Below are positions 171 to 52,591 of a stretch of 64,000 bases of DNA, piece by piece. The notes under the pieces are model-generated. The model was not told the origin of the DNA. It saw nothing but the letters and a program-made list of their open reading frames with translations, and ran no database searches. Position numbers and translations under genes: made by a program. The stretch lies in IMG/VR virus record IMGVR_UViG_3300024258_000005. One strand, 5' to 3'. Position 1 is the stretch's first letter, and each line of letters opens with the position of its first letter. Source of the DNA: a virus.

Positions 171-3100
171 ATGATTAATATCATAAAAGATGATGGTTCT
201 AAAGAGGAATATAAGCCCGAGAAATCACAACAGCATTTAGGTTATGCTGTTGAAGGACTATCTAGGGTATCAATTTCAGAAATTGAAATGAGAGCTTCTC
301 TTTCAATCGAAGATGGAACAACGTCAAAAGAAATTCAACAAGCATTGATTAAATCTTGTGCTGATCACATTAGTGAAGATGAAGATGAATATCAAATTGC
401 AGCTGCTAGATTGTTAAATCAAGATATTCGTAAAGATGTTTACAAGCAATATACTCCAAAATCATTTATTGAAATGATTGATAAAGGGTGCGATGCTGGT
501 TATTATGATTCTGAATATTTATGGAAATATTACACAAGAGATGAAATTATTACTTATGGTAAATTAATTGATTATGACCGTGATGACAATTTTGTATATT
601 CAGGTTTAAAGAAAACAAAAGATTCTTATCTAGTTAAACAATTTGGTAAAATTCAAGAAACTCCTCAAGAGATGTTTCTATTAATTAACATATTTGCATT
701 TGCAAAGTACAAAGGTGCTTTAAGAGACAAATGGGTTAAAAATGGTTATGATATTTTATCTAACTTTGAAGCTAGTCTTCCTACTCCTGTTATGATTCAA
801 GTTCGATCGATGTTCAGAAAATATATTTCATGTTTTAGAGGAAATACTAAAATACGCATAGCTAATTTAGATTTTAAACTTATACAGGACATTGTTATTG
901 GTGATAAAGTTCAAACAATTCAAGGAAATCTTAAAGAAGTTGTTGCTATAAATATAAAAGAACATACAGATGAATTTATAACAATTAATTCATCATATGG
1001 ATTAAATGATGAATTTACATCAACTGATAATCATCCAATAAAAAGCATTTTATTTGATGATATAAAATGTATTAGAAACCAAACTCCTAGTAATACTAAA
1101 CCAATTTGCATAACTTCTCAAACTAAAGCAAAACATTGTTTAAAATCTAAAAATCATTATAAAAATGATTGTGAATTATTAAATACTGACTGGTCAACTA
1201 TATCAAAATTTGTAGAAGCAAAAGATTTATCAATACATGATTATATCGCCATTCCTTTTGATAATAAGATAATATGCGATAATTTATTTGATATGAAAGA
1301 TTTTATAAATGATGATAAATACAAATTAATAAATGGATATATAACAAAAGAGCATATTAAAGTTTTTAATTTAAATCGGTTAATTAAAGTTGATGCAGAT
1401 TTTATGTATATTCTTGGTTGGTTTGCTGCTGAAGGGTGTGTTGTAAATAATCATTTAAATTTCTCACTAAATATAAATGAGATGGATTATTTAATAGATA
1501 TTAAAGATAAGATAAAACGAGTCTTTAATATAGAAGGTAAAATATATGATAATGGTGATAATTCCGTATCGTTGCAGGTTTCTCATAAAATACTAGCAAA
1601 TTTCTTTAATATTATATTAAATAATGCTAAGGAGAAAAGAGAAGGTTCTGTAATTCATGAAAAGATATTATACGCTGATTATGAATCACAAAAATATTTT
1701 CTCAAAGGAATATTTCTAGGAGATGGGTTTTTAGCAAGTAATTATTTAGGATTAGATATTGTTGATAAGAGATTCATTGATTTTACAAATCATTGTTTAC
1801 TTAGAAATGGTTTTATTTCACAAAATAGTAAATATATAAATGCTGCTAACACTCAATGTTATAGAATTAATATTCGTTTTGGTTTAAATGCAGAATTTAT
1901 AAAATTTGTAGATAAACGAACAGAAAATTTTAAAATTATTAAACAATTAGAAAATATTAATAATATAAAGTCTCCTAAAAATATAGGATTTTTTCAAGAG
2001 AATATATTATATAGTAAAATTATTAATATTAAAAAATTTAAAGAGGTTGTTGAAGTCTATGATATTGAAGTTCAAGATGATCATACTTTTATAGCAAATG
2101 ATTATGGTGTACATAATTGTAACTTAATTCATCCAGGCGATAGTAATACTACATTAGCAGAAGCTTCTAAAATTATTATGAAACTTGTTGCTGCTGGTGC
2201 TGGTCTAGGAATCGGTAATACTGTTCGTGGATTAGATGCTGATATTGATAATGGTCGTTTATCACATACTGGTTGTTTACCAATTTATAAGGGTTATGAA
2301 AAATTGACTAAAGCTTTTGTTCAACCATCACGAGATGGTTCAAGTACTGTTTACCATCCTTTCTTCCATGTTGAAATAGAATCAATGATGGTATGGGGAA
2401 ATGCTAAAGGTACTGAAGAAACACGTATTCGTGAGATGGATCATGCTATTACATTTAGTGCTCTCTTTTGGGAACGTTATGCTAATGGTGAAGATATTAC
2501 ATTATTCTATTTAAATGATGTTAAAGATCTTGTTAACTTTATGGGTGATGATGAAAAATTCAAAGAGCTTTATGAAGGTTATGAGAAATCTGTTCCGGCT
2601 GAACGTAGAACAACTATTACAGCTGAAAGTATATTTGATACATTTGTAGATGAAAGACATTTACAATCTAGAGAATATACTGCTTTCTTGGATAATATTG
2701 GTAAACAAGGAATGTACAAAGTTCCTATTTTTATTAGTAATTTATGTACTGAAATAACTCAACCAATTTATCCTGTTCATGAACAAGGACATAAAAGAAA
2801 TATTAAATTCAATGATGCGGCTTCTGAAGAGAAGTATTGGGATCTACGAACTGAAGCATATTTCTATCCAGATAATGATGTTAAGCGTACAAGCTTTATG
2901 CGTCAAATGTCTGAGTTATATACTTTTGTTGATGCTGATCCTTTTGCGGAAGTAGATGAAGATAAAGTATATGATTACTTTACTAATCGTGGATTTCCAA
3001 ACCTAGCAGAAGTTGGTGTTTGTATTCTAGGTGGTGTAAATATGGGTCATACTACTGATAAGCGTTTACCAATTGTAAGTGAATACTTAGTTCGTTTCTT

Positions 3101-3914
3101 AGAAGAGTTAATTGATATGGGGACATATGATGTACCTGAAGTTGAAAAAGCTGCTAAGATGCGTAGAACATTAGGTATTGGTTTCAGTGATATATTCCAT
3201 TTAATGGCAATCAATAAAGTATTTTATAATACTAGAGAAGGTCGTCAATTTATTGCAAATAGAATTGAATTATGTACATATCATATGACAAGAACTTCTA
3301 TGGAACTTGCGAAAGAGCGTGGAGCATGTTTACTATTTAAAGACACTAAGTACTCTGATGGTCTATTACCAATAGATACTTATAACAAACATGTTGATGA
3401 ACTTATTGGTAAAAATACCGAATTTGATATTGATTGGCCTTGGCTTCGTGAGCAAATTTTGAAATATGGAATGAGACATTCTACATTGACAGCTAATGCT
3501 CCATTTGGAAGTTCTTCAATGGTTTCAAATTCAACTCCAGGGATTGAACCTCCAAGAGGTTTACAAGTTTCTAAAAAAGGTGTTACTAAATTAGTACCTG
3601 ATATTAGAAGATTTGGTAAATATTATACAACTGCATGGAGTGATGATTTTAACAATATTGATTATTTTAAATTTATTGCTGTTGTTCAGAAATTTATGGA
3701 TCAAACATTAAGTGTTAATCAATATCATAATATGATTAAAACTGATGGTAAGAAAAAGAAATCATTATTAATAGAAGAAATTTTAGTTGCTTGGTATTAT
3801 GGTTTAAAAACATTATACTATTCAAATATTAGAAGTACTGATCAAGCTGATGGTGATGATGAAATTGAAGAAGAAGAAGATGATGGTTGCGCAGGCGGCG
3901 GTTGTAAAGTATAG
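171..3914 (+). CDS. nrdA: Ribonucleotide reductase class Ia alpha subunit, intein-containing
   Basis: N-terminal ATP-cone-like start, ETPQEMF, SLPTPVM, SNLCTEI (catalytic N-x-C-x-E), GIGFSD, TANAPFGSSS, LKTLYY and the C-terminal redox pair DDGCAGGGCKV. RBS aagga lies upstream. Confidence 0.97.
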   Translation: MINIIKDDGSKEEYKPEKSQQHLGYAVEGLSRVSISEIEMRASLSIEDGTTSKEIQQALIKSCADHISEDEDEYQIAAARLLNQDIRKDVYKQYTPKSFIEMIDKGCDAGYYDSEYLWKYYTRDEIITYGKLIDYDRDDNFVYSGLKKTKDSYLVKQFGKIQETPQEMFLLINIFAFAKYKGALRDKWVKNGYDILSNFEASLPTPVMIQVRSMFRKYISCFRGNTKIRIANLDFKLIQDIVIGDKVQTIQGNLKEVVAINIKEHTDEFITINSSYGLNDEFTSTDNHPIKSILFDDIKCIRNQTPSNTKPICITSQTKAKHCLKSKNHYKNDCELLNTDWSTISKFVEAKDLSIHDYIAIPFDNKIICDNLFDMKDFINDDKYKLINGYITKEHIKVFNLNRLIKVDADFMYILGWFAAEGCVVNNHLNFSLNINEMDYLIDIKDKIKRVFNIEGKIYDNGDNSVSLQVSHKILANFFNIILNNAKEKREGSVIHEKILYADYESQKYFLKGIFLGDGFLASNYLGLDIVDKRFIDFTNHCLLRNGFISQNSKYINAANTQCYRINIRFGLNAEFIKFVDKRTENFKIIKQLENINNIKSPKNIGFFQENILYSKIINIKKFKEVVEVYDIEVQDDHTFIANDYGVHNCNLIHPGDSNTTLAEASKIIMKLVAAGAGLGIGNTVRGLDADIDNGRLSHTGCLPIYKGYEKLTKAFVQPSRDGSSTVYHPFFHVEIESMMVWGNAKGTEETRIREMDHAITFSALFWERYANGEDITLFYLNDVKDLVNFMGDDEKFKELYEGYEKSVPAERRTTITAESIFDTFVDERHLQSREYTAFLDNIGKQGMYKVPIFISNLCTEITQPIYPVHEQGHKRNIKFNDAASEEKYWDLRTEAYFYPDNDVKRTSFMRQMSELYTFVDADPFAEVDEDKVYDYFTNRGFPNLAEVGVCILGGVNMGHTTDKRLPIVSEYLVRFLEELIDMGTYDVPEVEKAAKMRRTLGIGFSDIFHLMAINKVFYNTREGRQFIANRIELCTYHMTRTSMELAKERGACLLFKDTKYSDGLLPIDTYNKHVDELIGKNTEFDIDWPWLREQILKYGMRHSTLTANAPFGSSSMVSNSTPGIEPPRGLQVSKKGVTKLVPDIRRFGKYYTTAWSDDFNNIDYFKFIAVVQKFMDQTLSVNQYHNMIKTDGKKKKSLLIEEILVAWYYGLKTLYYSNIRSTDQADGDDEIEEEEDDGCAGGGCKV
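831..2117 (+). mobile_element. Intein (429 aa) with LAGLIDADG homing endonuclease in nrdA
   Basis: Block A CFRGNTKI, block B TSTDNHP, LAGLIDADG motifs YILGWFAAEG and FLKGIFLGDG, block F VYDIEVQDDHTF, block G VHN followed by Cys+1. Removing it restores RKYIS-CNLIHPGDS (E. coli RQFSSCVLIECGDS). Confidence 0.95.
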
Positions 3915-6592: not shown

Positions 6593-6658
6593 TTCATAGG
6601 TTTTCTTGTCCTTTATTCATAGTTCCTTGAACAAATATTAAAACTAGAAGGAGTACAC

Positions 6659-8032: not shown

Positions 8033-11000
8033 TTTTGAAGATGTTTTTACAAACGGATATACTTCAGAGTCTCGTTCTCTTTTGGAGGCTGAAACTATAA
8101 ATTCAATAAATAATAACATGGACGATGCTACCGGAACGATTCTACCACCATGTCATTTGGATTTTGGAAACTTTGGAAATATAGAATTTCCTTGGATGGA
8201 TATTAAAGCTGCTCCTGTTAATTATAAATTATTTAATAAACTTCATCAATTATCAAATGTTATTCGATCTATTAATGATGCGTTTATATCTTTAATTTTA
8301 GAGTTTCAATGTTGTGGAATTGCTGAGCTTTATAATAATAGTATTATTCCTATTTTCGAATGGGTACTTAAAGATTTTATTGGTGTTTTAACTGATATTG
8401 CTAGTGGATTAATTCAAGGCAATCAAGCGTTTAAAGTTTTAGTTTGTGCTGTAAAACCGGTTCCGGCTAACCCTTGGTTAGGTATAGGGGGCGTGGATTA
8501 TTTAAGTACAGTATATTCATATTTAAATGGTTTTGAAGCTATTTATAATTGGATTATGGATGGGAATCCAGTAGATTTAATTTTAAATCCGGTTCAAGAT
8601 TTTTATAATAAAATTAGTTCTTGTACTCCAATTAATGCCCCAGTAACGGAAGTTAACCTTGAATTAGGAAGTGAAAGATTAAAAGAATTATTATCAAGTT
8701 ATAAAAATTCAGATAAGACCAGCCCAGAAGCAATTACTTCTGTTCAACAAACATTTAATGATTTTAAATCATATGAGAAAGATAAATTCGTAATACATAG
8801 AAAGATTACAGATTTAAAAAATCAAAAAATTATTTTAAGTTATGCTCCAGAAGAATTATATGCTATATTAAGAACTTTTGATATTGATGAAGAATTAAAA
8901 ACTTTAAATGATGAAGTTAAACAATTGAATACTGACAACGCTGAAACTATTAAAGCTTATAATGCTTATCAAGATGAAGAAATTGCAAGTACAATCATTG
9001 AGAGTACAAAATTATTATCAAGTGATAGATTAGTATCAAAAAATATTGATCAATTGTTAGTTGACAAATTTAATCCTACATGTTCATGTTTGACAAATAT
9101 TATAGGAATTAGTGCTTATAATTTACCCACTTATAGAACTATTCGAACTTGGGCTGATGTTGATAATCTTTCAAGTGAAGTTCATTGGGGAAGTAGAGAA
9201 ATTTGGAAAACTGCTTTAGAAAAAATTGATGATGGTTTATCTTTAGATACTGATATTGTTAACAATATCTTTATCAGTAGAAAAAATATACAAAAATTAT
9301 ATGATGATAATAATAGTAGTATTGATCGTGATAATAAAGTAACTCTTGAAGTTAATTCTTATAATTTTGGAAATAGTATATCTGGAAGTGACATAGATTA
9401 TAATTATATTGATGGTAATGGTGTTAGAGAAGATGAATCTTTTGATGTTTCAGTTGTTTCAAATCTTCCTTTTATAACTTGGGATACACAAAAGCTTTAT
9501 TTATATAGTGATGTGTATGCTCATTCTGATTCTGATGTTAGAACTATTTTTGATATTAATGCAGAAAGATACGACGAAAAAAATAGATTATTAAAAGACA
9601 TGGCTATTGTTACAAGTAGAAAAATTCAAATAGAATATAGAATGGAAGAAATTTGGAATAATCTCCGTAGAGCTGCTATTGATAAAATGAATTTTGAAAA
9701 ATTCTATGAAGCAACTAAAGATACAGATGAATCATTTTTAGATTTAGATATATTTCATGCTACAAGTTATAGCACTGGTTTTGAAAGTAGTTTAGATTTT
9801 CTATCAGGTGCAAACATGTTATCTAAACTTGGTGCTGGTTTTGATATGAATAAGTTTTTATTAGAATTTCAAATTACAGATTTTACATTTGATGAAGCTG
9901 AAACTGATATGGAAAACTTTGAATTTCTTAAAATTGAATGGATTGAACTTTCAAAAAGTGCTGGTCAGTATGACGGTTTAATTACTAGAATCGATAGTGT
10001 TATTAAAATTGATAATGTTGTAGTTGAAATTATTGATCAAAGTATTCAAGATTGTGGATGTGATATACTTTGTAAATTACTTCAATGGGTTTTAGATATT
10101 ATTTTAAGTACTGTTAATTCACTTATTGAGATGATAATTGCTAAAATTTTAAAGATGGTATTAAACGAACATGTTGCTTATATAATAAAAGTTATTTTAC
10201 AATATGCTCAATGTATTGCGGATATTGCGGCATTCAGTGATAATATAAGTGATATTAAAGCCAGAGCTTCTGCTATGAATGATGAAACATCTGGAGAAAA
10301 TGCTGGACTAAATCTTATGAAAGATCCTGCTTATTGTGATGCTCAGGCAACTGTTTTTAATACTTTAGATAAATTATTAATAGAAGATGAGATTCATGTT
10401 TCTCATGGTGATGCAAATGATTTAGATGATGATGATACTATTATATATCCTGATCCTAGTTTTGGTGTAATTGATACAGATAATACTCCAAATCCTGGAA
10501 ACATTCTTATTAATAATGGAACAACAGTTAAAGGTGATATTAAAGCAGGTAAATCAATACCTGAAGTAGAAATAATTTGTGCTGAGGATTTAAAACCTAG
10601 CTTAACTGCTGTTTTAGATCCAGTAAATCAATATGAAGTTCTACTTGTGTTTAAACCTAGTGATTATATAAATTCTGCACCTGTGGTTGAAGTGGAACAA
10701 GGTGATATTGTTACACCTGATGCATTAGATATAGATGGGAATATTATAAACACCAGTGAAGTAACAAGTCAAGTTCAATCACTTAGTGATCTTTTAAAAG
10801 TTGCAGAACAACAAGTACAAGAAGCTTTAAATGCTCCTGTGTATTTAGATACGGATTGCGAAATACATGCTACGCCAAATACAATGACATTATGTAGTAC
10901 TGATAATTTATTTATTGAAAGTACTTATATTATTGATGATGTGGGTGAAGAAGTTGTAGATTTTGATACATATGGTGAGCTATCTGCGAACGCAAATATA

Positions 11001-12902
11001 ACTGTAGATGTTAAATATGAATATTTCCCTGAAGATGATAATGCTGATGAAAATGGTATGGTTCAGATTCCAGAAAACGAAACATATAGAACATATACAA
11101 TACCTGATGGAACGATTACTGTTAATCCTCCTGTTGTTAATACGTGGGTTGAGATAGTTGATATTGATACTCCACAAATAGACGATTTTTCTTCTTCAAC
11201 TGAAACAGTTATAGAAAATTTTGAAACACTAAGTACATTAATTGAATTACAAACTAGTTTTAATTTAAACGGAGATATACTTGAGAAGCATTATGAAGAA
11301 ACAAGAACATTAACAGTTGATGCCCCATTTCGATTTATTGATTTAGAAATTTTAGTTACTTTTAAAAATTTAGTAAATAGTCTTGATGTTCGATTTGTTT
11401 TAGATGTTCTTGGTTCAGGTGAAGTATCATCTCCCTCATTATATGATGCAAATGTTAGATATAGAAATGTTGTTGATATAGGTTTTTTACAATCTACTAA
11501 TGGGGTCGTTTATCATATTAGTGATAGGCGATTATTATTTCTTTCACAAACGTTATTAAAAGATAATAGTCTTATAAAGGATCCTAGAGCAGTTGCGGAA
11601 GAAGCAGAAACTCAAAAGAATGCTGGTAATACTGAACTTGATAAATGTTTATTACCTGAAAATCAACAAGAAGTTGTTCAAGTACAACAAGGAATAACTG
11701 AAAATATTACAGCTGCTATTGATTCATTTAATAAAAGCACAGCGGCTTTAATTCCAGAAGTTGTTGAGATAGAACCAATTGATTATAATCCTATTCAATT
11801 GGATACTTTAAAATATTCAATTCCATTAATAGTATTAAATCAAGAACATAATATTATACTACAAATTGTTGACAAGAAGATATTTCTTCAGTTCAAATCT
11901 AATTCCTTGGTGATGTCTGCTCCTTTAATTATTGACCATGAGTTGGTACCTGATGATACTTATATGTTAGTTTTTGGTACAAATAATCTGATGGTTGATT
12001 TAAAATTAATTACTCAGGATAAAATCGTACATGAAATTAGAGGTATTAATTCATCTGGTGTTTCTTTACTTCCTACTATTATTGGTGGTAATGCTGATGG
12101 TACGGAATCATTCTGTGGTGCCACTCTTTTAGATTTAATATTTTCAAAAGGTGGTGGATTATCAGATGATTATTATAATAGATCTGTAATGTCATATATT
12201 CCTAGAACAGCTGCTGTTGTATTTGACTTTAGTGTAAGTCAAGGTTCAAGAGTATTTAACACTATTAATAAAGCAGGTGCTGTTTTTATTAAAGATCAAA
12301 CTGTACTAGATAGATTTAATAATCCTATTGAAGTGGCTGCTCAAAAAGCAGATTACTATGGTGATATTTTATCAAATAATTATTATCAAGTTCTAAATGG
12401 ATACATGGATAATTTCTTTTGTAGAGAGAATTTACAAAATAAAGATTTTACTGTTTCATTATGGTTAAATAAAATAGACACTGTTGAGAGTACACGACAT
12501 ATAATTTTAGCAGATGATATTAATCAGAATTATATTTATTATGATTCTGTTGCTAATAGAATAATTTTGGATATTTATTTAGAAGAGATTCAATTTGTAT
12601 TTATACAGTTGACAACTTGGACACATATAACATTTAAACATAATTATTACAGTAATCGTTTTGTTTTAGATATTCATGAATTGGATGGTGCTTCACACAC
12701 TCTAGCTATTAACTCAAGAATTCAATTTTCACTTATGAGTATTTTTGCTGAGTATAGTTATGACACTAAAAAATATATTAATGAATTCGGCGGATTATTA
12801 AGTACAGTATCAATATTCTTTACAGATATTGATTCACTAACTTATAATACTTTGCACAATGAACAGAGTATTTTAGTTAGAGGTATGGAGAATTTATTAT
12901 GA
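8016..12902 (+). CDS. Large putative virion/baseplate protein (1628 aa) with possible C-terminal LamG/concanavalin-like region
   Basis: Acidic ORF between the spike and PAAR genes. It has Cys clusters (QCCG, CSCL, DCGCDILC), and FTVSLWLNK...WTHITF near the C-terminus recalls LamG. Confidence 0.55.
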   Translation: MKYASSFEDVFTNGYTSESRSLLEAETINSINNNMDDATGTILPPCHLDFGNFGNIEFPWMDIKAAPVNYKLFNKLHQLSNVIRSINDAFISLILEFQCCGIAELYNNSIIPIFEWVLKDFIGVLTDIASGLIQGNQAFKVLVCAVKPVPANPWLGIGGVDYLSTVYSYLNGFEAIYNWIMDGNPVDLILNPVQDFYNKISSCTPINAPVTEVNLELGSERLKELLSSYKNSDKTSPEAITSVQQTFNDFKSYEKDKFVIHRKITDLKNQKIILSYAPEELYAILRTFDIDEELKTLNDEVKQLNTDNAETIKAYNAYQDEEIASTIIESTKLLSSDRLVSKNIDQLLVDKFNPTCSCLTNIIGISAYNLPTYRTIRTWADVDNLSSEVHWGSREIWKTALEKIDDGLSLDTDIVNNIFISRKNIQKLYDDNNSSIDRDNKVTLEVNSYNFGNSISGSDIDYNYIDGNGVREDESFDVSVVSNLPFITWDTQKLYLYSDVYAHSDSDVRTIFDINAERYDEKNRLLKDMAIVTSRKIQIEYRMEEIWNNLRRAAIDKMNFEKFYEATKDTDESFLDLDIFHATSYSTGFESSLDFLSGANMLSKLGAGFDMNKFLLEFQITDFTFDEAETDMENFEFLKIEWIELSKSAGQYDGLITRIDSVIKIDNVVVEIIDQSIQDCGCDILCKLLQWVLDIILSTVNSLIEMIIAKILKMVLNEHVAYIIKVILQYAQCIADIAAFSDNISDIKARASAMNDETSGENAGLNLMKDPAYCDAQATVFNTLDKLLIEDEIHVSHGDANDLDDDDTIIYPDPSFGVIDTDNTPNPGNILINNGTTVKGDIKAGKSIPEVEIICAEDLKPSLTAVLDPVNQYEVLLVFKPSDYINSAPVVEVEQGDIVTPDALDIDGNIINTSEVTSQVQSLSDLLKVAEQQVQEALNAPVYLDTDCEIHATPNTMTLCSTDNLFIESTYIIDDVGEEVVDFDTYGELSANANITVDVKYEYFPEDDNADENGMVQIPENETYRTYTIPDGTITVNPPVVNTWVEIVDIDTPQIDDFSSSTETVIENFETLSTLIELQTSFNLNGDILEKHYEETRTLTVDAPFRFIDLEILVTFKNLVNSLDVRFVLDVLGSGEVSSPSLYDANVRYRNVVDIGFLQSTNGVVYHISDRRLLFLSQTLLKDNSLIKDPRAVAEEAETQKNAGNTELDKCLLPENQQEVVQVQQGITENITAAIDSFNKSTAALIPEVVEIEPIDYNPIQLDTLKYSIPLIVLNQEHNIILQIVDKKIFLQFKSNSLVMSAPLIIDHELVPDDTYMLVFGTNNLMVDLKLITQDKIVHEIRGINSSGVSLLPTIIGGNADGTESFCGATLLDLIFSKGGGLSDDYYNRSVMSYIPRTAAVVFDFSVSQGSRVFNTINKAGAVFIKDQTVLDRFNNPIEVAAQKADYYGDILSNNYYQVLNGYMDNFFCRENLQNKDFTVSLWLNKIDTVESTRHIILADDINQNYIYYDSVANRIILDIYLEEIQFVFIQLTTWTHITFKHNYYSNRFVLDIHELDGASHTLAINSRIQFSLMSIFAEYSYDTKKYINEFGGLLSTVSIFFTDIDSLTYNTLHNEQSILVRGMENLL

Positions 12903-25192: not shown

Positions 25193-25263
25193 AAATCTCC
25201 TTTTTTTATTTAATATTTGTTGGCTTGTTTGAAATTAACCTCAAGGAAATCTTAGAAAAGAAA

Positions 25264-25596
25264 TTAATCTTTTCTAAGAGAATCTAGGGCACCACCTGAG
25301 AAGTAAAATCCTAAGATGGCTAATATAATCATACCTAAATTAAAAGCCGCTATAATCGCTATAATCGCTTTATAGTCTACACCTATAGCATTAGCTGATA
25401 ATGCTAATGATATTGCTATAACATATATTAACGAGAAGATTAAAGCTATTGAACGTTGCATTAATTTGAACGCTGTGTACTCGCTAAACATAAAATTAAT
25501 TTGTTTGGTTTTTGTATCATCTGATATAGGAAGAGAGTTGATGAATTCAACTCTATCTGCTATATATTCTTTTGTTCCAAATATTTTTCCTATCAT
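25264..25596 (-). CDS. Holin-like membrane protein (3TM/GTA-type holin family)
   Basis: MIGKIFG... N-terminus, FKLMQRSIALIFSLIYVIA TM segment and C-terminal GMIILAILGFYFSGG, a pattern typical of this holin family. Confidence 0.65.
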   Translation of the reverse strand: MIGKIFGTKEYIADRVEFINSLPISDDTKTKQINFMFSEYTAFKLMQRSIALIFSLIYVIAISLALSANAIGVDYKAIIAIIAAFNLGMIILAILGFYFSGGALDSLRKD

Positions 25597-25608: not shown

Positions 25609-26775
25609 TTAAAATAATATATCTAATCTGATACAATATCTAAATGATTCATCATCTATTGGTGTAACACTGTTACCACCAGATAATTTAGCATAATCTA
25701 TTTGTTCGTATCTTCCGGTTACACCTAGTTTAATCTTTGGTGTAACATATATACCTGTATACACTTTAAAGGTATTTCCTAAATTACCCCATGAGTAAGC
25801 ATTTATATTTTCTAAATCGGTAGCATAACTTATCCAATGTTTAGAAGCATAAAAATACTCTGCACCGAAATAAGAATCTAATCTAAATATATTAGCATCA
25901 AAATCTTTCTTAGCTCCAACAAGAACACTATATCCAGTTCGTTTACCTTCATCGCTAAAGTTGATACCCGGACCTTCTAATGCTGTGCCAGTTGGTGATA
26001 TTTCTGTACCATCAAAATCTGTAACAGATACCCCGGCTATACCATAATATACCATTCCTGATGTATCTCGATCATCATACTGATAACCAACACCTGCGAA
26101 GTATAAATTTCCTAATGATTCTAATGTTTCTTCATCATATATCTTTTCATATATAATATTCGATACTGAAGCATTAATTCTAAACGTATGTTTATCAATT
26201 ACACTCTTTGTAAATAAATATCCTATATCACTTCCATTTCTAGAGTTTTCATATCTATCTTCTGGTAACTGGTAAATGTCATCTATTCTGGCACCATAAC
26301 CAAATTGTATTTTATGATTTTCATTTATATAATGGGTATAAAATACACCAGTCATATTAATATAATAAAATGTCATAAGAGCATCGCTAAGTTTTAAACC
26401 AGCAGTACTATGTTCACTAAACACACCATTCTTAAAACTAAAATTACCAACGCTGATAATATCATCAGGTGTTATAAATATGTTTAAATCTAATTCACTA
26501 ATTTCAAAATAATTCTCAGCTGGACGTATTTTATTATATGAACGAGAATATATCTCTGATCTACTTGTATAATTAATCGTACTATTAATAGTAACATATT
26601 TATTAAATATGATGTCATTATAAGTATTCAATATTATTCTATGTCCTTCGGCTTCTATATCATTTCCTAGAACTGTTCCACTACTACTGCCATACATAAA
26701 CTCTAGTTTGTTAAAATTTTTAAGTTCTACCGCGTATAAGTTTAAACAGATTACTAATATCATTAAATATTTCAT
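25609..26775 (-). CDS. Outer-membrane beta-barrel (porin-like; DUF3373-like by recall)
   Basis: Signal peptide MKYLMILVICLNLYA, alternating aromatic/hydrophobic beta-strands throughout, FGAEYFYASKHW segment, and a C-terminal BAM beta-signal YCIRLDILF ending in Phe. Confidence 0.75.
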   Translation of the reverse strand: MKYLMILVICLNLYAVELKNFNKLEFMYGSSSGTVLGNDIEAEGHRIILNTYNDIIFNKYVTINSTINYTSRSEIYSRSYNKIRPAENYFEISELDLNIFITPDDIISVGNFSFKNGVFSEHSTAGLKLSDALMTFYYINMTGVFYTHYINENHKIQFGYGARIDDIYQLPEDRYENSRNGSDIGYLFTKSVIDKHTFRINASVSNIIYEKIYDEETLESLGNLYFAGVGYQYDDRDTSGMVYYGIAGVSVTDFDGTEISPTGTALEGPGINFSDEGKRTGYSVLVGAKKDFDANIFRLDSYFGAEYFYASKHWISYATDLENINAYSWGNLGNTFKVYTGIYVTPKIKLGVTGRYEQIDYAKLSGGNSVTPIDDESFRYCIRLDILF

Positions 26776-27041
26776 AATTTATCTCCTATCTCACGTGAGT
26801 GCTTATCAATATCAAACCCTTTTGAAATCAAGCATTGCCCTAAATAAAATTTATCAAAGTCACTTACTTTGCCGTCTGTATACTCATAAAGTTCATTCTT
26901 TTTAACTACCCTTTTCCATCCAGAGATACTTTTTATCTCGGGCGAAATTAGATACTTGTTAAAATATATTTGACAGGATTCAGCATACACATGAGAAAAT
27001 GATAGCATTATAATAATGCATATCTTTTTTATATTTTTCAT
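26772..27041 (-). CDS. Small secreted (periplasmic) protein with two Cys
   Basis: Signal peptide MKNIKKICIIIMLSFSHVYA with an AxA-like cleavage site; the mature part has two Cys (ESCQ, GQCL). ATGA overlap with the porin gene. Confidence 0.6.
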   Translation of the reverse strand: MKNIKKICIIIMLSFSHVYAESCQIYFNKYLISPEIKSISGWKRVVKKNELYEYTDGKVSDFDKFYLGQCLISKGFDIDKHSREIGDKL

Positions 27042-28394
27042 TTACACTCCTATATATATTGCAGGGAAGATTATTTCGAATACTGTTCCGTTTCCGGATG
27101 TTTCACGAAGTTTTAAATCTCCTGCCTTTTCATTTAGTAACTCTTTATTTAAATAAAGACCTACACCTCTAACATTAACATCAGTTGGTTTTTTAAATAT
27201 GTTTGCTAATTTATGTAAAGAGTCTAATATGTATCCTTTAGATTCGCGAATTACAAACTCACCTGATGAATCTTTACTTGAATAGTATGGTTTAAATATG
27301 TCTTCATATTTCTCTTTACTAAGAAGTAGACCAGTTGTTCTATCTCTTAATCCTACACCATTATCTATAATATATAAATGTAAATCTTTAGTTACATTAT
27401 TAAATTTAACTTGTGTGACAATTCTTGATGAGTTTGCTTCTAAAGAATTTCTAAAATGATTAGATACAATATTTAAAAGGTCACCATTTTTTAATAGTCC
27501 ATCTAATTTGTATTTTCCTAAATTGGGATCTATTTTGATATTAAAATTTGATTTTTTATATATGTTCATTGAGTTCACACTGTACTCAATTATGTTTTTT
27601 AATGTTTTATTTCCCTTACTGTATTTCAAGTTTTTAAAATTACTCATACGCTGGAGAACATTATCTATTTGTTCTATACTAGAATATAATTGACCGAAGT
27701 CGAAGAAGAATTTTTCATTACACTTACAATCATAAATGGGAGATAATGTGCTTTGCATTTCAATTTCTAACTTTCTAATATTACCTTGAATAATAGCAAC
27801 AGGTGTATTAAGTTCATGATGAATATTCTCCGTTAGGATTTGCATATTCTTTTCTCTTAATGTATTACTTGTACTCATCATATCTAAAATTTTTCGTTTT
27901 CTTAATTTATATTCTAAACCGAAGAAGACAAAGGTGTATATTAAAAATAATATAATATTTATATTTATATACCCCATAAAAATATTGTCTATTAAAAGTT
28001 GTGTATTTGGAACTATATAAATTTGATAATCAGGAAATTCCATATATAAATTTAAATTATTAGTTAATGATAGTTCTTTACCACTAAAAGATAACTCTGG
28101 TTTTAAATAGGATTCTCTTTGTAATATATTATTTTCTTGTAGAGTATAAGTTGAATTATTGACAAATCCTATTTCAGAACAAGTTGTAATAATACATAAA
28201 TGTTGTAAATCAATTTCATCAAACTCTTCAATAATACTTATAATAGTAGAATTTATTCTATCCTTATATACTACATTTATTGTATAAAAATTTTCAAATA
28301 GTACAGCATTCATAATAAATATATTTAATAAAAGATATAAACTATAACGTGTACACGTTTTAATATTGTCATGGGTATACATTATATCTCCCAT
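27042..28394 (-). CDS. Membrane sensor histidine kinase
   Basis: Two TM segments flank a roughly 100-aa extracytoplasmic region. H box NIHHELNTP, N box NHFRNSLEA, G1 IIDNGVGL, F box DIFKPYYSSK, G2 GVGLYLNK and terminal GTVFEIIFP are all present. Confidence 0.93.
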   Translation of the reverse strand: MGDIMYTHDNIKTCTRYSLYLLLNIFIMNAVLFENFYTINVVYKDRINSTIISIIEEFDEIDLQHLCIITTCSEIGFVNNSTYTLQENNILQRESYLKPELSFSGKELSLTNNLNLYMEFPDYQIYIVPNTQLLIDNIFMGYININIILFLIYTFVFFGLEYKLRKRKILDMMSTSNTLREKNMQILTENIHHELNTPVAIIQGNIRKLEIEMQSTLSPIYDCKCNEKFFFDFGQLYSSIEQIDNVLQRMSNFKNLKYSKGNKTLKNIIEYSVNSMNIYKKSNFNIKIDPNLGKYKLDGLLKNGDLLNIVSNHFRNSLEANSSRIVTQVKFNNVTKDLHLYIIDNGVGLRDRTTGLLLSKEKYEDIFKPYYSSKDSSGEFVIRESKGYILDSLHKLANIFKKPTDVNVRGVGLYLNKELLNEKAGDLKLRETSGNGTVFEIIFPAIYIGV

Positions 28395-29053
28395 TTTTGC
28401 TGAGTGTAATACTCTTCTATTAAATCTCCATACGCTGAAACTCTATTACCATTTTTATTAATAATATGTTTATACATTTCAATCTCTTCACCTTTGTAAA
28501 CTAACTTTTTAGTTTCATCTATTGGTGTTTGGAAAAACTCTTCAAATTTTTGAATGAATTCAAAAATTTCAGGATTATATTTATTTAATGTGTGCCCTGT
28601 TATAAATTTAATTAAGCACTTTGGATTATGTTGTTTTAACATGATGGCTACATCGATGCCATCATATTCAATATTATTAATTACACCACCAAGTGTGATA
28701 TCTAGAATTCCAACATCTACTGTTTTATCAGGATCTTTAAGATATTTTTCTACTGTAAATCCAGCATAGTTGCCAGTTGCCATCATAATATTAAATTCTT
28801 TATATACATCACAATATTGAACTCTACTAAGCTCGTCTTTAATTAATTCAGCCATTCCAGTAAAATCATCCATTATAAGAATATTTGGATTTCCTTCTAT
28901 TTCTGGTTGACAGAAAAACATTTCAGGAACTTTGATACTATATTCTGCAGGTTTTAATTCTGCAGGTGTAATATATTCATCATTGAATTTCATTTTCTTT
29001 TTACGTGATTTAAAAGGGTTAATTGTTTGTATTATAGTAAGAATCTTATTCAT
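28382..29053 (-). CDS. Response regulator, receiver domain only (CheY-like)
   Basis: NILIMDDF (acidic pocket), DVGILDITL (phospho-Asp), DGIDVA, IKFITGH (conserved Thr) and a candidate Lys in IINKN. No HTH or other output domain is visible. Confidence 0.88.
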   Translation of the reverse strand: MNKILTIIQTINPFKSRKKKMKFNDEYITPAELKPAEYSIKVPEMFFCQPEIEGNPNILIMDDFTGMAELIKDELSRVQYCDVYKEFNIMMATGNYAGFTVEKYLKDPDKTVDVGILDITLGGVINNIEYDGIDVAIMLKQHNPKCLIKFITGHTLNKYNPEIFEFIQKFEEFFQTPIDETKKLVYKGEEIEMYKHIINKNGNRVSAYGDLIEEYYTQQKWEI

Positions 29054-29517
29054 TTCGTTTCCTTTATAACATCAGCTGTCTCATTTATAACTCTGATTAA
29101 ACTTTCATTAATTGCTCTGTATGCTCCAGGATCAATTTCATAAATAGTAACAAGTACCATTACAATTACTACCCAAGTAAATAAAACTCGTTTAGCATTT
29201 TCCCATGTTAACATTTCATATAATCTTTGTGTCCATGGTAAGTACTTTTTTCTTTCATTAATCATTTTATTAACAGTTGTTGATTTAATTGTTAATGCTT
29301 TATCTAAAAGAATAAGCATTTGTTTTTTATCTGATTTATTTGTCATATTAAATTCATTATATATTAGTACAAATAATTCATATGTCTCAGGGGATACTTT
29401 TTTTACTTCAAAAAATTTGCCCATAAGATCTTGTTTTTCATCATCAGAATTTTTATAGTTCAGTATATCAATTCTTAATTCTTCTAATTTATTACTTAAT
29501 GTAATATAATCTTCCAT
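29050..29517 (-). CDS. Membrane-anchored hypothetical protein (single C-proximal TM)
   Basis: Hydrophobic VLFTWVVIVMVLVTIY segment, RBS aaggagag, and an ATGA overlap with the response regulator. Confidence 0.7.
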   Translation of the reverse strand: MEDYITLSNKLEELRIDILNYKNSDDEKQDLMGKFFEVKKVSPETYELFVLIYNEFNMTNKSDKKQMLILLDKALTIKSTTVNKMINERKKYLPWTQRLYEMLTWENAKRVLFTWVVIVMVLVTIYEIDPGAYRAINESLIRVINETADVIKETK

Positions 29518-30496: not shown

Positions 30497-30556
30497 GAAG
30501 ACTTTATAAATTGAAAAAATTTGAATTTATAAAGTCTTCGAGTCTAAGACTCGAAG
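30497..30556 (-). terminator. Two overlapping hairpins after the 392-aa gene
   Basis: gaagactttataaatt (30497-30512) pairs with aatttataaagtcttc (30524-30539); cttcgagtct-a-agactcgaag (30536-30556) overlaps it. Confidence 0.55.
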
Positions 30557-39503: not shown

Positions 39504-41636
39504 TTATACCACAATGATTGGAATATCAATTGACTCTAATGTTCCAACAGGTTTAACTGTAATTGTTAATCTTAATTTATATGTTTCATCATTAAATGTA
39601 GCTTTTACACTTGCTGATTCAAAAATACCATCAACTACGTTCTCAGGTGTAATAACCCATTTTGCAAGTTCACCTTCTGTACGAGTAACAGCAGTATCAA
39701 TTACACTACCAATAGCTTTAGTTTGTAAAAGATCTTTAAGTAATTTAGGAAGATCTTTACGAATTCTATGAAGAACTTTAACTATATTAATACGACTAAG
39801 CTTAGATGCTTTTTTGTACATTGTAAGTTGATCAATAATATAAGTACCATCAGGCTCTACAATTACTGTATTTACTTGCTCATTTCTAAGCTTTTCAATT
39901 TCCAATGAAGTAGGCGCATAAGTCAAGTTAAGTGTAGTACTAGCTAAAGTACCTTTAACCATATTTGCAACAGGTTCAGTAATAGAAAAAGTATTATCAA
40001 TACGTAAGTGACTAATCATAGCGTAGTATGATAAAGGCATATACATTCTTAAGTTATTAGCGGTTCTATGCGTTTTATTAAGCTGTCCAGAGTAAAGTGC
40101 AGAGTTATATGAACTTTGGAATAAACGCTCTTTACGAGTAGTTAAATCGCGGTCTACAAGCTCTTTAGTAATAATCGTAGGATCATAATTTAAAGGCATA
40201 GATAAAATTGGCATACTTAAACCAATATCATCAGCAAGATTAATAATAGCAACATTTACATCTATATTTTCAGTCCAATCAGGAATATAATCGAAATCAT
40301 ATTTAGGATAAAGAACTTCTCTAAGATCTTCAGTGTTGTTATAGAAATTTAACATAAGCTCTTTAGCATTTTGTGAACCAGCGGCGCTAGTGCCTTGCAT
40401 GTTAAGTTTACCATTCATGTGAAGATTTTCACCATCGGTACCAGTATAAAGTTTCATAGAATAATCCATTAACTTTGAATAAATCATATGACGTAATAAA
40501 GGAGCTTCACTCATTACTAAAATACCAAGAGGAGAGAATGTTAAATTATAAAATGCTTCTTCGCCATCAACAATATAACCATCAACAGATGCTCCAGTAA
40601 CAGCAGCAGATACAAATGTAATTTGAGAATCAGTGATTAAGATTTGCTTAGCGACTTCAGTAGCTGTATCATCAATATATTTAATAACAACATCACCTGT
40701 AGCAGCAGTGTTAGTAATAACAGCAGTTAAACGTTGAGTCGGAACTCTAACATTAACACCATTTTCAACTATAATCTCATCATATGTTTCAACTTTAACT
40801 TCATAAAATTTATCATCAGTAACTGAGTCAGCAATGATTAAACGTTGATCAGTAAGATCATCAATAGTTGCACCAGCAGCCATATCTTGAGCAAACTCTT
40901 CATTAACATTTAATGTAGCAAATTCATTAGCATCTTTAAAAACAGTATTTACAAATAAATCATTACCTGTAGTTTTGTCAATAATAGGCTCATTAGTAAT
41001 AGCATCATTTTCAATTAAAGAAAATACAACTGGGTCACCAAGAGATTTAATACCATTAATTGTTTCTTCATATACTTCTGCTTGTACAAAGTTAAACTTA
41101 TAATTAGTTTCACCATTTACATCACTATCCATTTTTTCATGTCCAGCAGCAGGTTCAAATGTTACAAAAATTGAGTTATATCCTTCACCACGAGCAGTTG
41201 CTAATGCAGAAAGAACCACATCACTATCTGGTAATCCTAATGGAGTTTCACCTGGTAAATAAGGAATGTAATTCATATCTGTTTTAGATACAATTCCTGG
41301 GTAAGATTTATATTCGCCTTCTGGTTCTTCAACTGTACCAATGTTACGAATAACATTATTAGCATATGTAGCATCATCTGGTAATAGTCTGTAAGTAATT
41401 ACGTTATCTGTTTGAGCAGCAGCTAAACCATATAGGTAACTTTTACCATATTTTTTAATATCTTCTCGACCTAAAGAGTATTTGAAAGCATCAATAGAAT
41501 CATGTTTCTTAAAGTCTTCTCTACCATATTTAAAAAAACCTGGTAGTAATATTGTTCGAGAACCGTTAATTGTTGTAGTGATTGTACTTCTGTCTATAAC
41601 AGATGTAGTTACACTAGGAATAATTGGGATATACAT
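39504..41636 (-). CDS. Tail sheath protein
   Basis: TYRLLPDDATYAN, ATARGEGYN and a C-terminal sheath domain (TEPVAN..KG, LRNEQVNTVI, LSRINIVKVLHRI, ITVKPVGTLESIDI). Confidence 0.9.
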   Translation of the reverse strand: MYIPIIPSVTTSVIDRSTITTTINGSRTILLPGFFKYGREDFKKHDSIDAFKYSLGREDIKKYGKSYLYGLAAAQTDNVITYRLLPDDATYANNVIRNIGTVEEPEGEYKSYPGIVSKTDMNYIPYLPGETPLGLPDSDVVLSALATARGEGYNSIFVTFEPAAGHEKMDSDVNGETNYKFNFVQAEVYEETINGIKSLGDPVVFSLIENDAITNEPIIDKTTGNDLFVNTVFKDANEFATLNVNEEFAQDMAAGATIDDLTDQRLIIADSVTDDKFYEVKVETYDEIIVENGVNVRVPTQRLTAVITNTAATGDVVIKYIDDTATEVAKQILITDSQITFVSAAVTGASVDGYIVDGEEAFYNLTFSPLGILVMSEAPLLRHMIYSKLMDYSMKLYTGTDGENLHMNGKLNMQGTSAAGSQNAKELMLNFYNNTEDLREVLYPKYDFDYIPDWTENIDVNVAIINLADDIGLSMPILSMPLNYDPTIITKELVDRDLTTRKERLFQSSYNSALYSGQLNKTHRTANNLRMYMPLSYYAMISHLRIDNTFSITEPVANMVKGTLASTTLNLTYAPTSLEIEKLRNEQVNTVIVEPDGTYIIDQLTMYKKASKLSRINIVKVLHRIRKDLPKLLKDLLQTKAIGSVIDTAVTRTEGELAKWVITPENVVDGIFESASVKATFNDETYKLRLTITVKPVGTLESIDIPIIVV

Positions 41637-49304: not shown

Positions 49305-50819
49305 TTAAGATAAATAATTTTTTATAAAACTCATGTTACCTGAGTCATATATAACTCGATATTTATTTTCTATCATATTTTGAATCTCTGTTTTTTCAGA
49401 ATCAAAAGTATCCAAAAGGGCTTCTAATTTATGCTTTTGAAATTTTATTCTTGAATATAATTCATTATTTTTAAAATAAAAATAATTAGGATTTGATATT
49501 GTATTATGTTTAAAATTTAATGTTTTATACAAATTACCATTACTCCATCTCCTATTAGCATATGAAATTAATATGTCTGGTTTATAATGTATCTCGAAGT
49601 ATTTTAATAATTTACTTGCAGCTCCTGGTACCTGAAGATTTAATTTTGAACAAAATCTAATTAATTCAAAACTAATATTTTTATCATATCTACTTTTACC
49701 AAAAGTCATAACAGATACCAATTCATCTGTTGCGTTACTAAATAATCCTAATTGTATAGAACTTTGACATTTACCTTGTAAATGGTTTTCATCTAAAAAA
49801 TTATTAGTTAAAGAATTATCAATCTCTTTAATATAACATTCTCTTGCTCCGATTTTAAATTCAACTTTTCCTAAAGCATTTCTTATTTGACTTTTCCAAA
49901 TTTCTTTTTTCTTTTCCCATTCATTTTCAAATATATGAAACAATTGATAACCTTTTGATTCACAAGCTACTGTTTTTTTAATATGTCTGTTTTTATTATA
50001 ATTTAAATTATTTTGTTTATCATTAACGTTATTTAAACCATAACTATGCCAATATAAACCGTTAAATTCAATTGCAACCTTATAATCAGGTATTAATATA
50101 TCAAGCTCTAGAGGAGATATAAGAGTCCTATCACTTTGCTTAATATCTAATCCTAAAGATTCTACAAAATCCGCAACCTCTTTTTCAGGACTTGATATTA
50201 AACCATTAGTGTATACAATATTAAGATATTGCATTCTTTTGTTAATATTAGATTTAGAAATATTAAAATGCAAAACCATTTTATCGATATCAAGTATATT
50301 ATTTGTAATAAAATTTTTTATAATATATTGTTTATTGTAATCTTTTATATTTGTAAAATGTTTATATGTACTTGAGACAGCCCCATATTTTAATATACAT
50401 GTTTCTTTTACTTTTTTTTGAACTACTGGAACTTGCATATGATTATCAACCCCATATTTCTTTCGACATGTATTTTTAGTTTTCTTATTTTTAGTTATCT
50501 TTTTTTCTTCTGTCCAACTTTTTGATATTTGTTTTCTTAAAACTGAATCTTTATTTCTGCATGTGATTGAACAATATTGTCTAAATAAATTCTTTTCATT
50601 ATCAAATTTTGTATGATTTTTACAATCAATAGAACGACATTCTATATGTGATTTATTCATAACATATAAGTAAATTCTAGCTTTATCTGAATATACATCA
50701 TATGTTGTTTCTAATATTAGATCCCATATAGGAAGATCTAATATTTTTTTATTATTAGAACGTAATTTTAATGGGTCTTTCGATTTTATATATGGTGCTA
50801 TTGTTGTTATATCATTCAA
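49305..50819 (-). mobile_element. Hef-like homing endonuclease (504 aa)
   Basis: ISPLELDILIPDYKVAIEFNGLYWHS, LFHIFENEW, GARECY, ELIRFCS, ISYANRRWS; variable Cys-containing N-terminus. Confidence 0.8.
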
Positions 50820-50865
50820 TTTTTTTCCTTTTCTAACGATTCCTATACAGTTTTAATTTCTATGT

Positions 50866-50901
50866 TATTAACAAACAATCCATATGGATTGTTTGTTAAT
50901 A
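50866..50901. repeat. 36-bp perfect palindrome between the two Hef-like genes
   Basis: tattaacaaacaatccatatggattgtttgttaata is self-complementary. Confidence 0.9.
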
Positions 50902-50953
50902 TATTATACACTAAGGGGTAAATTTTGAGCATTATTGTCTTTATCAAATATTT

Positions 50954-52591
50954 TTAATAACTTTTGATAAAACTTAAATTTCCAGCGTCATATATAGATC
51001 TATACCCGTCTTCGATCATATTCTGCATTTCTGTTTTTAATGGATCAAAAACTTCCAATTGTTTTTCTAATTTATGTTTCTGGAATTTTACACGTGAATA
51101 TAATATATCATTATTTTTAAAATAAAAATAATTGGGGTTAGATATTGTATTAACTTTAAAATTTAAAGTCTTATATAAATGACCAGTACTCCACCGTCTA
51201 TTTGCATAACTAATTAAACCATTAGGTTTATAATTTATTTCAAAATGTTTTAATAATTTACTTGCAGCTCCTGGTACTTGTAGATTTAATTTTGAACAAA
51301 ATCTAATTAATTCGAAATCAATATTCTTATTGAATCTACTTTTCCCAAAAGTCATAACAGAAACCAATTCATCCGTTACTTTACTAAACAATCCTAATCT
51401 AATAGAGCTTTGACATTTACCTTGTAAATGATTAATATCCAAAAAATTATTAGTTAAAGAATTATCAATCTCTTTGATGTAACATTCTCTTGCACCTAAA
51501 CGATATTTACATTTTCCTAAAGCATTTCTTATTTGACTTTTCCAAATATTTTTCTTATTATCCCATTCATTTTCAAATATATGAAACAATTGAAAATTTT
51601 TATTTTCACATGCTTCTGTTTTTTTAACATGTCTATTTTTATTATATTTAAGATCTCCTTGATTATAATTAGTGTTATTTAAACCATAACTATGCCAATA
51701 TAAACCGTTAAACTCAATAGCAATATTATGATCAGGTATTATTATATCAAGCTCTAGAGGAGATATAAGAGTCCTATCACTCTGTTTAATATCAACATCT
51801 AAACTTTTAATAAAATCAGCAACTTCTTGTTCTGCTCTTGATATACCATTTTTAGATTTAAAATCTATGTTATTTAATTTCAAAAAATTATATGCTGTTA
51901 TTTTATTAATATTAAAATATTCACAAAACTTTAGAAGATTAATAGTCTCATCTGGTAAAATAAAATGTTTTTTTATATATGCTTTATTGTAATTGTTATA
52001 ATTTGTAATATTTAACTGTTGATGATGTCGGTCTTTATAAACATGTGGAACTTTATTATTTCTATGTAAATTTTTTATTTGATTTTGATTAGTTACTCCA
52101 TACTTATTAAATATTGTTTTTTGTAGCTTCTGTTGTCGTATACTGTGTTTATCATCGTGAACACAATCACAAAAAGTATTAAAAAAATTAGTGCTCTTAT
52201 TAAAGGTTTTCGTATTAAAACAATTTGAAGATTCACAAATTAATTCTTGTTCTGATAAATCATAAACTAAGATAAACATTCGAACAAGTATACTTCCTTT
52301 AAAAAATTTCGTATCTTCTAATATTTTGTCATAAATGATATCATCTTGTAATTTTTTTAGATTTATAAGTTGTCCATCTTTTCGTATATATTCAGTTAAA
52401 TTATATTTTTCAATTAAAACTAAATTTCTTTTAATCTTTAGTTTTCTTAATTCAATTTTAATAGAAATTAATTCTTCTTTATTTTTTTCAATCTCTATTA
52501 AAATTGAAGAATTTTTCTGTTTTTTGTCTTGCAATTTCAATAATTGAATTTTTCTTTTAATCTCTATATATTTTTTATATAATAATAACAT
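50954..52591 (-). mobile_element. Hef-like homing endonuclease (545 aa), tandem paralogue
   Basis: Same C-terminal motifs as the 504-aa copy, with identical DNA stretches (e.g. tcaagctctagaggagatataagagtcctatcact in both). Confidence 0.8.

Follow-up and report, generated by a model that had tools for sequence, protein, structure and literature searches.

A 64,000-nt stretch of DNA from an uncultured virus (hereafter the window) encodes a predicted porin-type beta-barrel and a small secreted protein that is modelled as its plug, and both genes lie in one operon with a sensor histidine kinase and a stand-alone receiver. We propose that the plugged porin is an accessory arm of the kinase operon, gating or reporting the signal of the kinase. 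The function is inferred without experimental backing, and the host has not been identified; we put the proposal slightly above even odds (probability about 0.55).

Judged by its genes, the window is phage DNA. It is AT-rich (23-34% G+C) and carries genes for a tail sheath and a head-like protein, a ribonucleotide reductase and two homing endonucleases (Table 1). The barrel protein recurs letter for letter on a 260-kb contig, and the source is therefore a jumbo phage. The DNA is present in seawater metagenomes. No match was found among GenBank phages (blastn with the operon, tblastn with the barrel), and pattern scans with the barrel alignment and with the ribonucleotide reductase found no relative in 185,579 species genomes, one genome for each species. 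No tRNAs were found in the window.

Three further genes of the window deserve mention. One product gave weak matches to the Peptidase_S80 and S77 prohead proteases (E 4e-4 and 8e-4) and may thus be a head maturation protease of the phiKZ kind. The head-protein-like gene is followed directly downstream by a tandem pair of genes for homing or HNH endonucleases, each about 500 aa long (phrog_3339, E 1e-113 to 1e-125). The large subunit of the ribonucleotide reductase is 1247 aa long, and only residues ~646-1246 matched the family, in two stretches; for the unexplained N-terminal half, an extension, an intein and a fusion are all conceivable.

Table 1. Positions of the features discussed, in window coordinates
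Feature	Coordinates	Strand	Basis
Ribonucleotide reductase large subunit gene	171-3914	+	family match
Promoter-like motif AACAAATATTAAA	25209-25221	-	past the hairpin, 16 nt before the 786-aa structural gene
Terminator-like hairpin	25250..25279	-	terminator scan; overlaps the end of the 110-aa gene
110-aa two-TM protein	25264..25596	-	phrog_9646, E 2.7e-11
388-aa predicted outer-membrane beta-barrel	25609..26775	-	Pfam, AlphaFold2, porin fold matches, signal peptide, terminal Phe
89-aa secreted protein	26772..27041	-	ATGA overlap with the barrel gene, alignments, AlphaFold2, complex prediction
450-aa sensor histidine kinase	27042..28394	-	HATPase_c, motifs, topology
223-aa stand-alone receiver	28382..29053	-	Response_reg, alignment, weak PDB receiver matches
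155-aa protein	29050..29517	-	first gene of the conserved five-gene block; homologues in the same position
16-bp inverted repeat	30497..30539	-	between the 392-aa and 308-aa genes, read from the sequence
Tail sheath gene	39504-41636		phage marker
Tandem homing or HNH endonuclease genes	49305-52591	-	phrog_3339
Head-protein-like gene	52709-54328		phage marker
Possible head maturation protease gene	54406-55200	-	weak Peptidase_S80 and S77 matches

The predicted porin and its small partner

The initial annotation had described the longer gene as a full porin of about 370 mature residues, with a signal peptide, amphipathic strands and a terminal Phe, recalling the DUF3373 type, and had stated that a predicted structure other than a transmembrane barrel would refute it. 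Its two open reading frames, of 388 and 89 aa, were both recovered on the minus strand (Table 1), and the description of the protein was borne out. An AlphaFold2 model built with 34 homologues (pLDDT 91.1, pTM 0.88) contained 16 long antiparallel strands. Short turns lay on the side of the termini, and the opposite side carried the long loops L3 (residues 114-139, which include a short helix), L4, L6 and L7. The signal peptide comprises residues 1-15 approximately, leaving ~372 mature residues. All 34 homologues have a signal-peptide-like N-terminus, and their C-terminal residue, preceded by an alternating hydrophobic last strand, is Phe in 33 and Trp in one. Insertion by the BAM complex is inferred from this terminal-Phe beta-signal; there are no localisation or heat-modifiability data. 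In a Foldseek search the model resembled the solved porins OmpM1, AlgE, OprB, OmpT, OmpF and PorB (E ~1e-11 to 1e-10), with TM-scores of 0.5-0.55 that mark the resemblance of the model to them as generic similarity of fold. The refutation thus did not occur: going by these models, the 388-aa protein is a Sec-exported 16-strand porin-type barrel with a predicted outer-membrane location.

The barrel matched Pfam PF11853 (DUF3373) with E 5.1e-10 and 39.4 bits against a gathering cut-off of 26.1, and the homologue from one relative (L009) also exceeded the cut-off (27.7 bits). The match aligned only positions 170-367 of the 409 of the Pfam model. DUF3373 was the sole Pfam report at E <= 0.1, without a Porin_1 or Porin_4 signature, and searches of NCBIfam, PADLOC and PHROG returned no match. 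The closest structure in the ESM Atlas was a DUF3373 cluster (TM 0.80 by query over an alignment of 351 residues), both sides of this comparison being predicted models. With DUF3373, classified in TCDB as 1.B.62 'Putative Bacterial Porin', the barrel thus shares an HMM match above the cut-off and a superposable predicted porin fold. Proteins of that family measure 505+/-71 aa, with about 490-505 aa as the usual size, and have 18 predicted strands (PMC4827864), whereas the phage proteins have 370-430 aa and 16 modelled strands and lack the N-terminal extension, the HMM match beginning at position 170. Because score and fold are met and size, N-terminal extension and strand number are not, we regard the barrel, on sequence comparison, as a shortened, phage-restricted branch of DUF3373.

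Among the loops of the barrel, L3 is the most conserved and has a fixed length of 26 residues. The lengths of L4 and L6 vary among the homologues. Taken overall, the extracellular loops are not less conserved than the strands (0.42 vs 0.42).

The small gene is joined closely to both of its neighbours. Its TGA stop overlaps the ATG of the barrel gene (ATGA), an arrangement from which we read the two genes as translationally coupled, and its own ATG abuts the stop of the kinase gene (TAAATG). The product was predicted to have a signal peptide and three helices (AlphaFold2 pLDDT 78). Residues C23, G41, W42, R44, L67 and C70 are invariant, and the protein is probably disulfide-bonded. Its C-terminal tail, though unstructured, holds a conserved RxIG motif (R83 and I85 at 92%, G86 at 83%). 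A lipobox is absent: the first mature Cys lies at least 2-3 residues past the point where cleavage is predicted, and an L-[AS]-[GA]-C context is missing. The family is small, with only 11 clusters at 90% identity, most of which come from contigs of 63-281 kb, the remainder from short fragments. None of the 11 contained a Pfam domain, and NCBIfam, PADLOC and PHROG gave no match for the small protein of the window. A fold match to methyltransferase dimerisation helices was rejected (the best Z was only 4.4 and the alignment took in the signal peptide); this weak result is the lack of a meaningful match and not evidence of a new fold.

The two-Cys secreted protein had been suggested as a plug or partner of the barrel, and complex prediction supported the suggestion in silico. 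We modelled the mature barrel (34-row alignment) with the mature small protein (12-row alignment), using unpaired alignments and three controls. The complex reached an ipSAE of 0.79, 0.80 and 0.80, as against 0.00 for the best of the three controls. The partner had a pLDDT of 84-85, and there were 84-87 confident contacts, at least 95% of them common between runs. In calibration, 58 of 80 solved complexes attained the ipSAE mark, as did 2 of 110 mismatched pairs; this serves as a rough guide only, since our own alignments were used here. The score expresses the confidence of a model and has no experiment behind it.

In the model, the small protein touched the N- and C-terminal ends of the barrel, every short turn (T1-T7, at about residues 56-64, 96-108, 145-157, 188-190, 236-240, 291-300 and 345-347) and residues 126-131 of L3. 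The termini and short turns of outer-membrane barrels face the periplasm, and the partner is therefore placed on the periplasmic mouth, its tail (residues 81-89) reaching the constriction loop L3. The modelled face is the only one open to a periplasmic protein, and no topology had been given to the model. Conservation was not significantly enriched at the interface in a permutation test (p ~0.16 for each chain). That the small protein plugs or gates the barrel from the periplasm has the backing of the model without being shown. In LptD-LptE and CsgG-CsgE, as in the predicted pair, a small partner, co-encoded or co-assembled with a barrel, fills its lumen or caps its periplasmic mouth. Those barrels are much larger or oligomeric machines for secretion or insertion, and LptE is a lipoprotein; to our knowledge, neither system is carried by phages or linked to a kinase.

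The kinase operon

The genes of the operon overlap or abut on the minus strand, and hairpins bracket the unit. The kinase matched HATPase_c above the cut-off (E 7.3e-7) and HisKA below it (E 1.2e-3). It retains complete H, N, G1, F and G2 boxes, which are conserved across seven aligned cassettes. Two TM segments enclose a periplasmic loop of ~100 aa, at about residues 35-133, with a CxxxxC motif (Cys 67 and 72), which may be a redox- or metal-sensing site, going by the motif alone. A sequence search of the PDB gave no match for the kinase. The receiver matched Response_reg below the cut-off (E 3.3e-4), and the acidic DD pair, the phospho-acceptor Asp in LDITLG, the Thr and the Lys are conserved in the seven cassettes. 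An extension of ~55 aa precedes the domain at its N-terminus, no output domain can be recognised, and its PDB sequence search returned only weak receiver matches. In NCBIfam there were weak matches to PhoR, AtoS, BaeS and CpxA for the kinase and to CpdR for the receiver. Kinase and receiver thus carry all residues of a two-component system as far as alignment can tell, and phosphotransfer between them is inferred. Kinase boxes and receiver residues are the same as those of classical HisKA systems with single-domain receivers of the CheY, DivK or CpdR kind; unlike those systems, the operon is encoded by a phage, is very divergent and has a conserved 155-aa membrane protein in front.

This 155-aa protein is helical in its N-terminal part and carries a single TM segment at the C-terminus. 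Homologues occupy the equivalent position in L001, L004, L005, L008, L009 and L013. No family match was found in Pfam, PHROG, NCBIfam or PADLOC, nor a usable match in the ESM Atlas. At the other end, the 110-aa two-TM protein is encoded by the last gene of the unit in the window and has homologues only in the closest relatives (L001-L004); it is holin-like only by size and topology. PADLOC also gave no match for the kinase, and its weak matches of the receiver to SspD (E 0.0042) and of the 110-aa protein to Cmr6 (E 0.045) were taken as noise.

Signals for transcription were sought around the unit. The inverted repeat between the 392-aa and 308-aa genes may be its upstream boundary. Past the terminator-like hairpin lies the 13-mer AACAAATATTAAA, whose only other exact copy in the window is at 6630-6642 (+), each copy being just upstream of a large structural gene. 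With up to two mismatches, the motif had 43 matches, above all shuffles (mean 28). A promoter scan gave no excess over shuffles. Three seawater metatranscriptome runs contained read-sized contigs identical to parts of the barrel, small-protein and kinase genes at a depth of 2-6; none were seen in these runs for the receiver and 155-aa genes. They are at most a weak hint that the operon is expressed, as carry-over of DNA is not excluded.

Distribution of the pair and its link to the kinase

A search of 1.84 billion proteins gave 38 representatives of the barrel family at 50% identity; two were fragments, and the others measured 326-434 aa. Neither phmmer nor a profile search with the 34-sequence barrel alignment reached a cellular DUF3373 protein, and the sampled members were phage-borne. 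We sampled nine distinct contexts, including that of the weakest representative (E 8.7e-4). All nine were on phage-like or jumbo-sized contigs, and all nine had homologous genes for the small protein and the histidine kinase. Genes for the receiver and the 155-aa protein were present wherever the contig reached far enough. Gene order was constant except in L011 (small protein, barrel, kinase), and the flanking genes varied. As in the window, the stop of the small gene overlaps or abuts the barrel start in 10 of 11 further cassettes. Of our readings, the one with the firmest computational support is that of an outer-membrane porin encoded by the phage together with a periplasmic plug of its own. 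That the porin-plug pair belongs functionally with the phage kinase operon is well supported by such gene-context data, because the pair was always found beside kinase genes.

In the relative L013, the barrel was only 24% identical to that of the window, whereas identity reached 54% in the receiver and 40% in both the kinase and the adjacent 786-aa structural protein. The faster divergence of the barrel compared with kinase and receiver would likewise be expected of a surface protein caught in an arms race. A GH108 lysozyme-type gene (L013:2448-3155) lies directly upstream of the cassette in this relative, the flanking structural genes being otherwise syntenic with the window. In L007, a 222-kb relative, two M15 peptidase genes precede the cassette, and a gene of a second outer-membrane barrel family (DUF481) stands three genes downstream of it (L007:4171-5153 and 10952-11686).

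The kinase does occur without the pair. An IMG/VR scan with the kinase alignment yielded 11 loci, the open reading frames of which were then searched with HMMs. Small protein and barrel were both present in three and both absent in L016, L019 and L021-L023. L015 (7435-8131) has an intact small gene followed by a 118-aa open reading frame and then by unrelated genes. The 118-aa frame is an apparent N-terminal remnant of the barrel, pointing to recent loss; in the kinase tree, L015 is sister to L014, whose barrel is intact. Among the barrel-less records are two complete jumbo-phage genomes, of 194 kb and 223 kb, which have terminal repeats and lack a barrel throughout. Both keep the trio of 155-aa-like protein, receiver and kinase without barrel or small protein (L019:3326-6795 and L023:4561-6894, respectively). 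A 198-aa protein with a signal peptide is encoded between receiver and kinase in L019. The CxxxxC motif of the kinase loop was kept in all seven kinases from barrel cassettes and in three of the five examined from barrel-less loci, and was dismissed for this reason as a tracker of barrel presence.

On a maximum-likelihood kinase tree, the presence pattern requires at least four gains or losses of the pair. The porin-plug pair is therefore an accessory module. Since the kinase-receiver core persists without it, the kinase does not need the pair, and mere co-expression is possible. The repeated losses keep simpler readings alive, namely a co-expressed nutrient porin or a surface decoy.

Proposed mechanism, alternatives and significance

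By comparative genomics, the operon core consists of the C-terminally anchored 155-aa membrane protein, the stand-alone receiver and the two-TM sensor kinase, and the barrel and small protein are its accessory outer-membrane module. In the mechanism that we propose, the small protein, sitting on all periplasmic turns of the modelled barrel with its RxIG tail up the lumen to L3, would act as plug or gate. By inference, the gated pore may control what reaches the CxxxxC loop of the kinase, or may report the state of the outer membrane to it. The kinase would then phosphorylate the receiver; this step too is inferred, and the signal is unidentified. Lacking a DNA-binding domain, the receiver would presumably act by contacting other proteins; its output is unidentified.

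A stronger version, which we hold only tentatively and by analogy, is that the pair forms the outer-membrane arm of a virus-encoded signalling device spanning the envelope, in which the plug would report surface events to the kinase and the receiver would adjust the programme of infection. Equally tentative are its possible signals, for example damage to the outer membrane, superinfection by a phage or a solute outside the cell, and its possible output, for example the timing of lysis. The nearest mechanistic analogue of barrel, small protein and kinase is the RcsF-OMP-Rcs system. In Enterobacteria, the small disulfide-bonded envelope protein RcsF sits inside a porin lumen or at its mouth, with the globular domain in the periplasm, and is tied to the Rcs phosphorelay, a histidine-kinase relay by which the state of the outer membrane is reported. 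RcsF is a lipoprotein that uses the housekeeping porins OmpA/C/F and signals via IgaA to a hybrid kinase. The small protein of the window, in contrast, has no homology to RcsF and no lipobox and is paired with a dedicated barrel, and the analogy is one of mechanism only.

Rather less probable, in our estimate, is that the barrel is a stand-alone diffusion porin, the product of an auxiliary gene that improves the uptake of solutes or nutrients in a long infection; the small protein would then merely help assembly or serve as a gate, with the kinase operon no more than a transcriptional neighbour. A general porin fold with a conserved constriction of fixed length at L3 is what such a porin would have, the pair is dispensable relative to kinase and receiver, and other phage-borne porins exist in BFVD. 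It is the linkage that tells against an independent porin: every sampled barrel adjoins kinase genes, even where identity falls to 23-30% and the flanks differ, and in the sampled contexts no barrel was found alone on a phage contig.

The initial annotation had also noted that outer-membrane proteins of phages are usually small, and had raised a receptor decoy or a block of superinfection among the roles of a full porin. Phages indeed carry small outer-membrane proteins and only rarely OmpC-type porins, as lysogenic-conversion genes. One of these, Lc of phage PA-2, is a full-size porin in the host outer membrane with a proposed role at the surface or in superinfection. According to PMC5381585, which cites Highton 1985, nmpC of the qsr' prophage also encodes a full-size phage porin, and NmpC was proposed to alter the surface or to block superinfection. 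The remark on size thus stands for the barrel itself, which is full-size, but full-size phage porins have precedents in nmpC and in several BFVD models. Phage porins being already known, the size of the barrel alone is not its novelty. NmpC (qsr'/DLP12 prophage) and Lc resemble it as full-size porins encoded by phages. They differ from it in belonging to the OmpC/OmpF family, the window barrel having no Porin_1 match, and in being lysogenic-conversion genes of temperate lambdoid phages without a co-encoded plug protein or kinase operon.

That the barrel serves, like these, in superinfection exclusion or as a receptor decoy, altering the surface of the infected cell or replacing a host porin used as receptor, seems to us unlikely. 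Its evolution, faster than that of its operon neighbours, and the variable lengths of L4 and L6 would suit such a protein, and phage porins proposed to block superinfection (PMC5381585, citing Highton 1985) offer a precedent. The equal conservation of extracellular loops and strands nevertheless speaks against it, no lysogeny genes were seen in the window, and the plug protein and the kinase linkage would be left unexplained.

We are as doubtful that barrel and plug are an accessory of lysis timing or outer-membrane disruption, helping to breach or sense the envelope at lysis. This weak link rests on the holin-like 110-aa gene, which closes the unit before the terminator-like hairpin, and on the GH108 and M15 genes upstream of the cassettes in L013 and L007. 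The 110-aa gene, however, occurs only in the closest relatives and its family, phrog_9646, has no known function; the GH108 and M15 genes lie in a tail module and may encode virion lysins; and a stable 16-strand porin is not a known device for disrupting membranes. Least of all do we favour a dedicated export channel with the small protein as cargo, a secreted phage signal later sensed by the kinase: small protein, barrel and kinase are co-encoded and the modelled tail enters the lumen from the periplasm, but a 16-strand barrel constricted by L3 leaves too little room for a folded domain of 8 kDa with a disulfide bond, and the sensor loop of the kinase is kept in phages without the small and barrel genes.

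We found no description of the cassette in the literature on DUF3373, on phage-encoded porins or on phage two-component systems. Uncultured, mostly jumbo-sized phages thus appear to carry a private porin lineage with a dedicated predicted periplasmic plug inside a two-component operon. The uncharacterised DUF3373 family gains a testable partner hypothesis, and the compact, genetically isolated barrel-plug pair lends itself to the study of porin gating. If the pair does gate the signal or report to the kinase, large viruses equip both membranes of the host with a sensory apparatus of their own, which opens the question of what an infected cell "listens" to; were the envelope-spanning version true, the cassette would be a phage-built analogue of RcsF-OMP-Rcs signalling.
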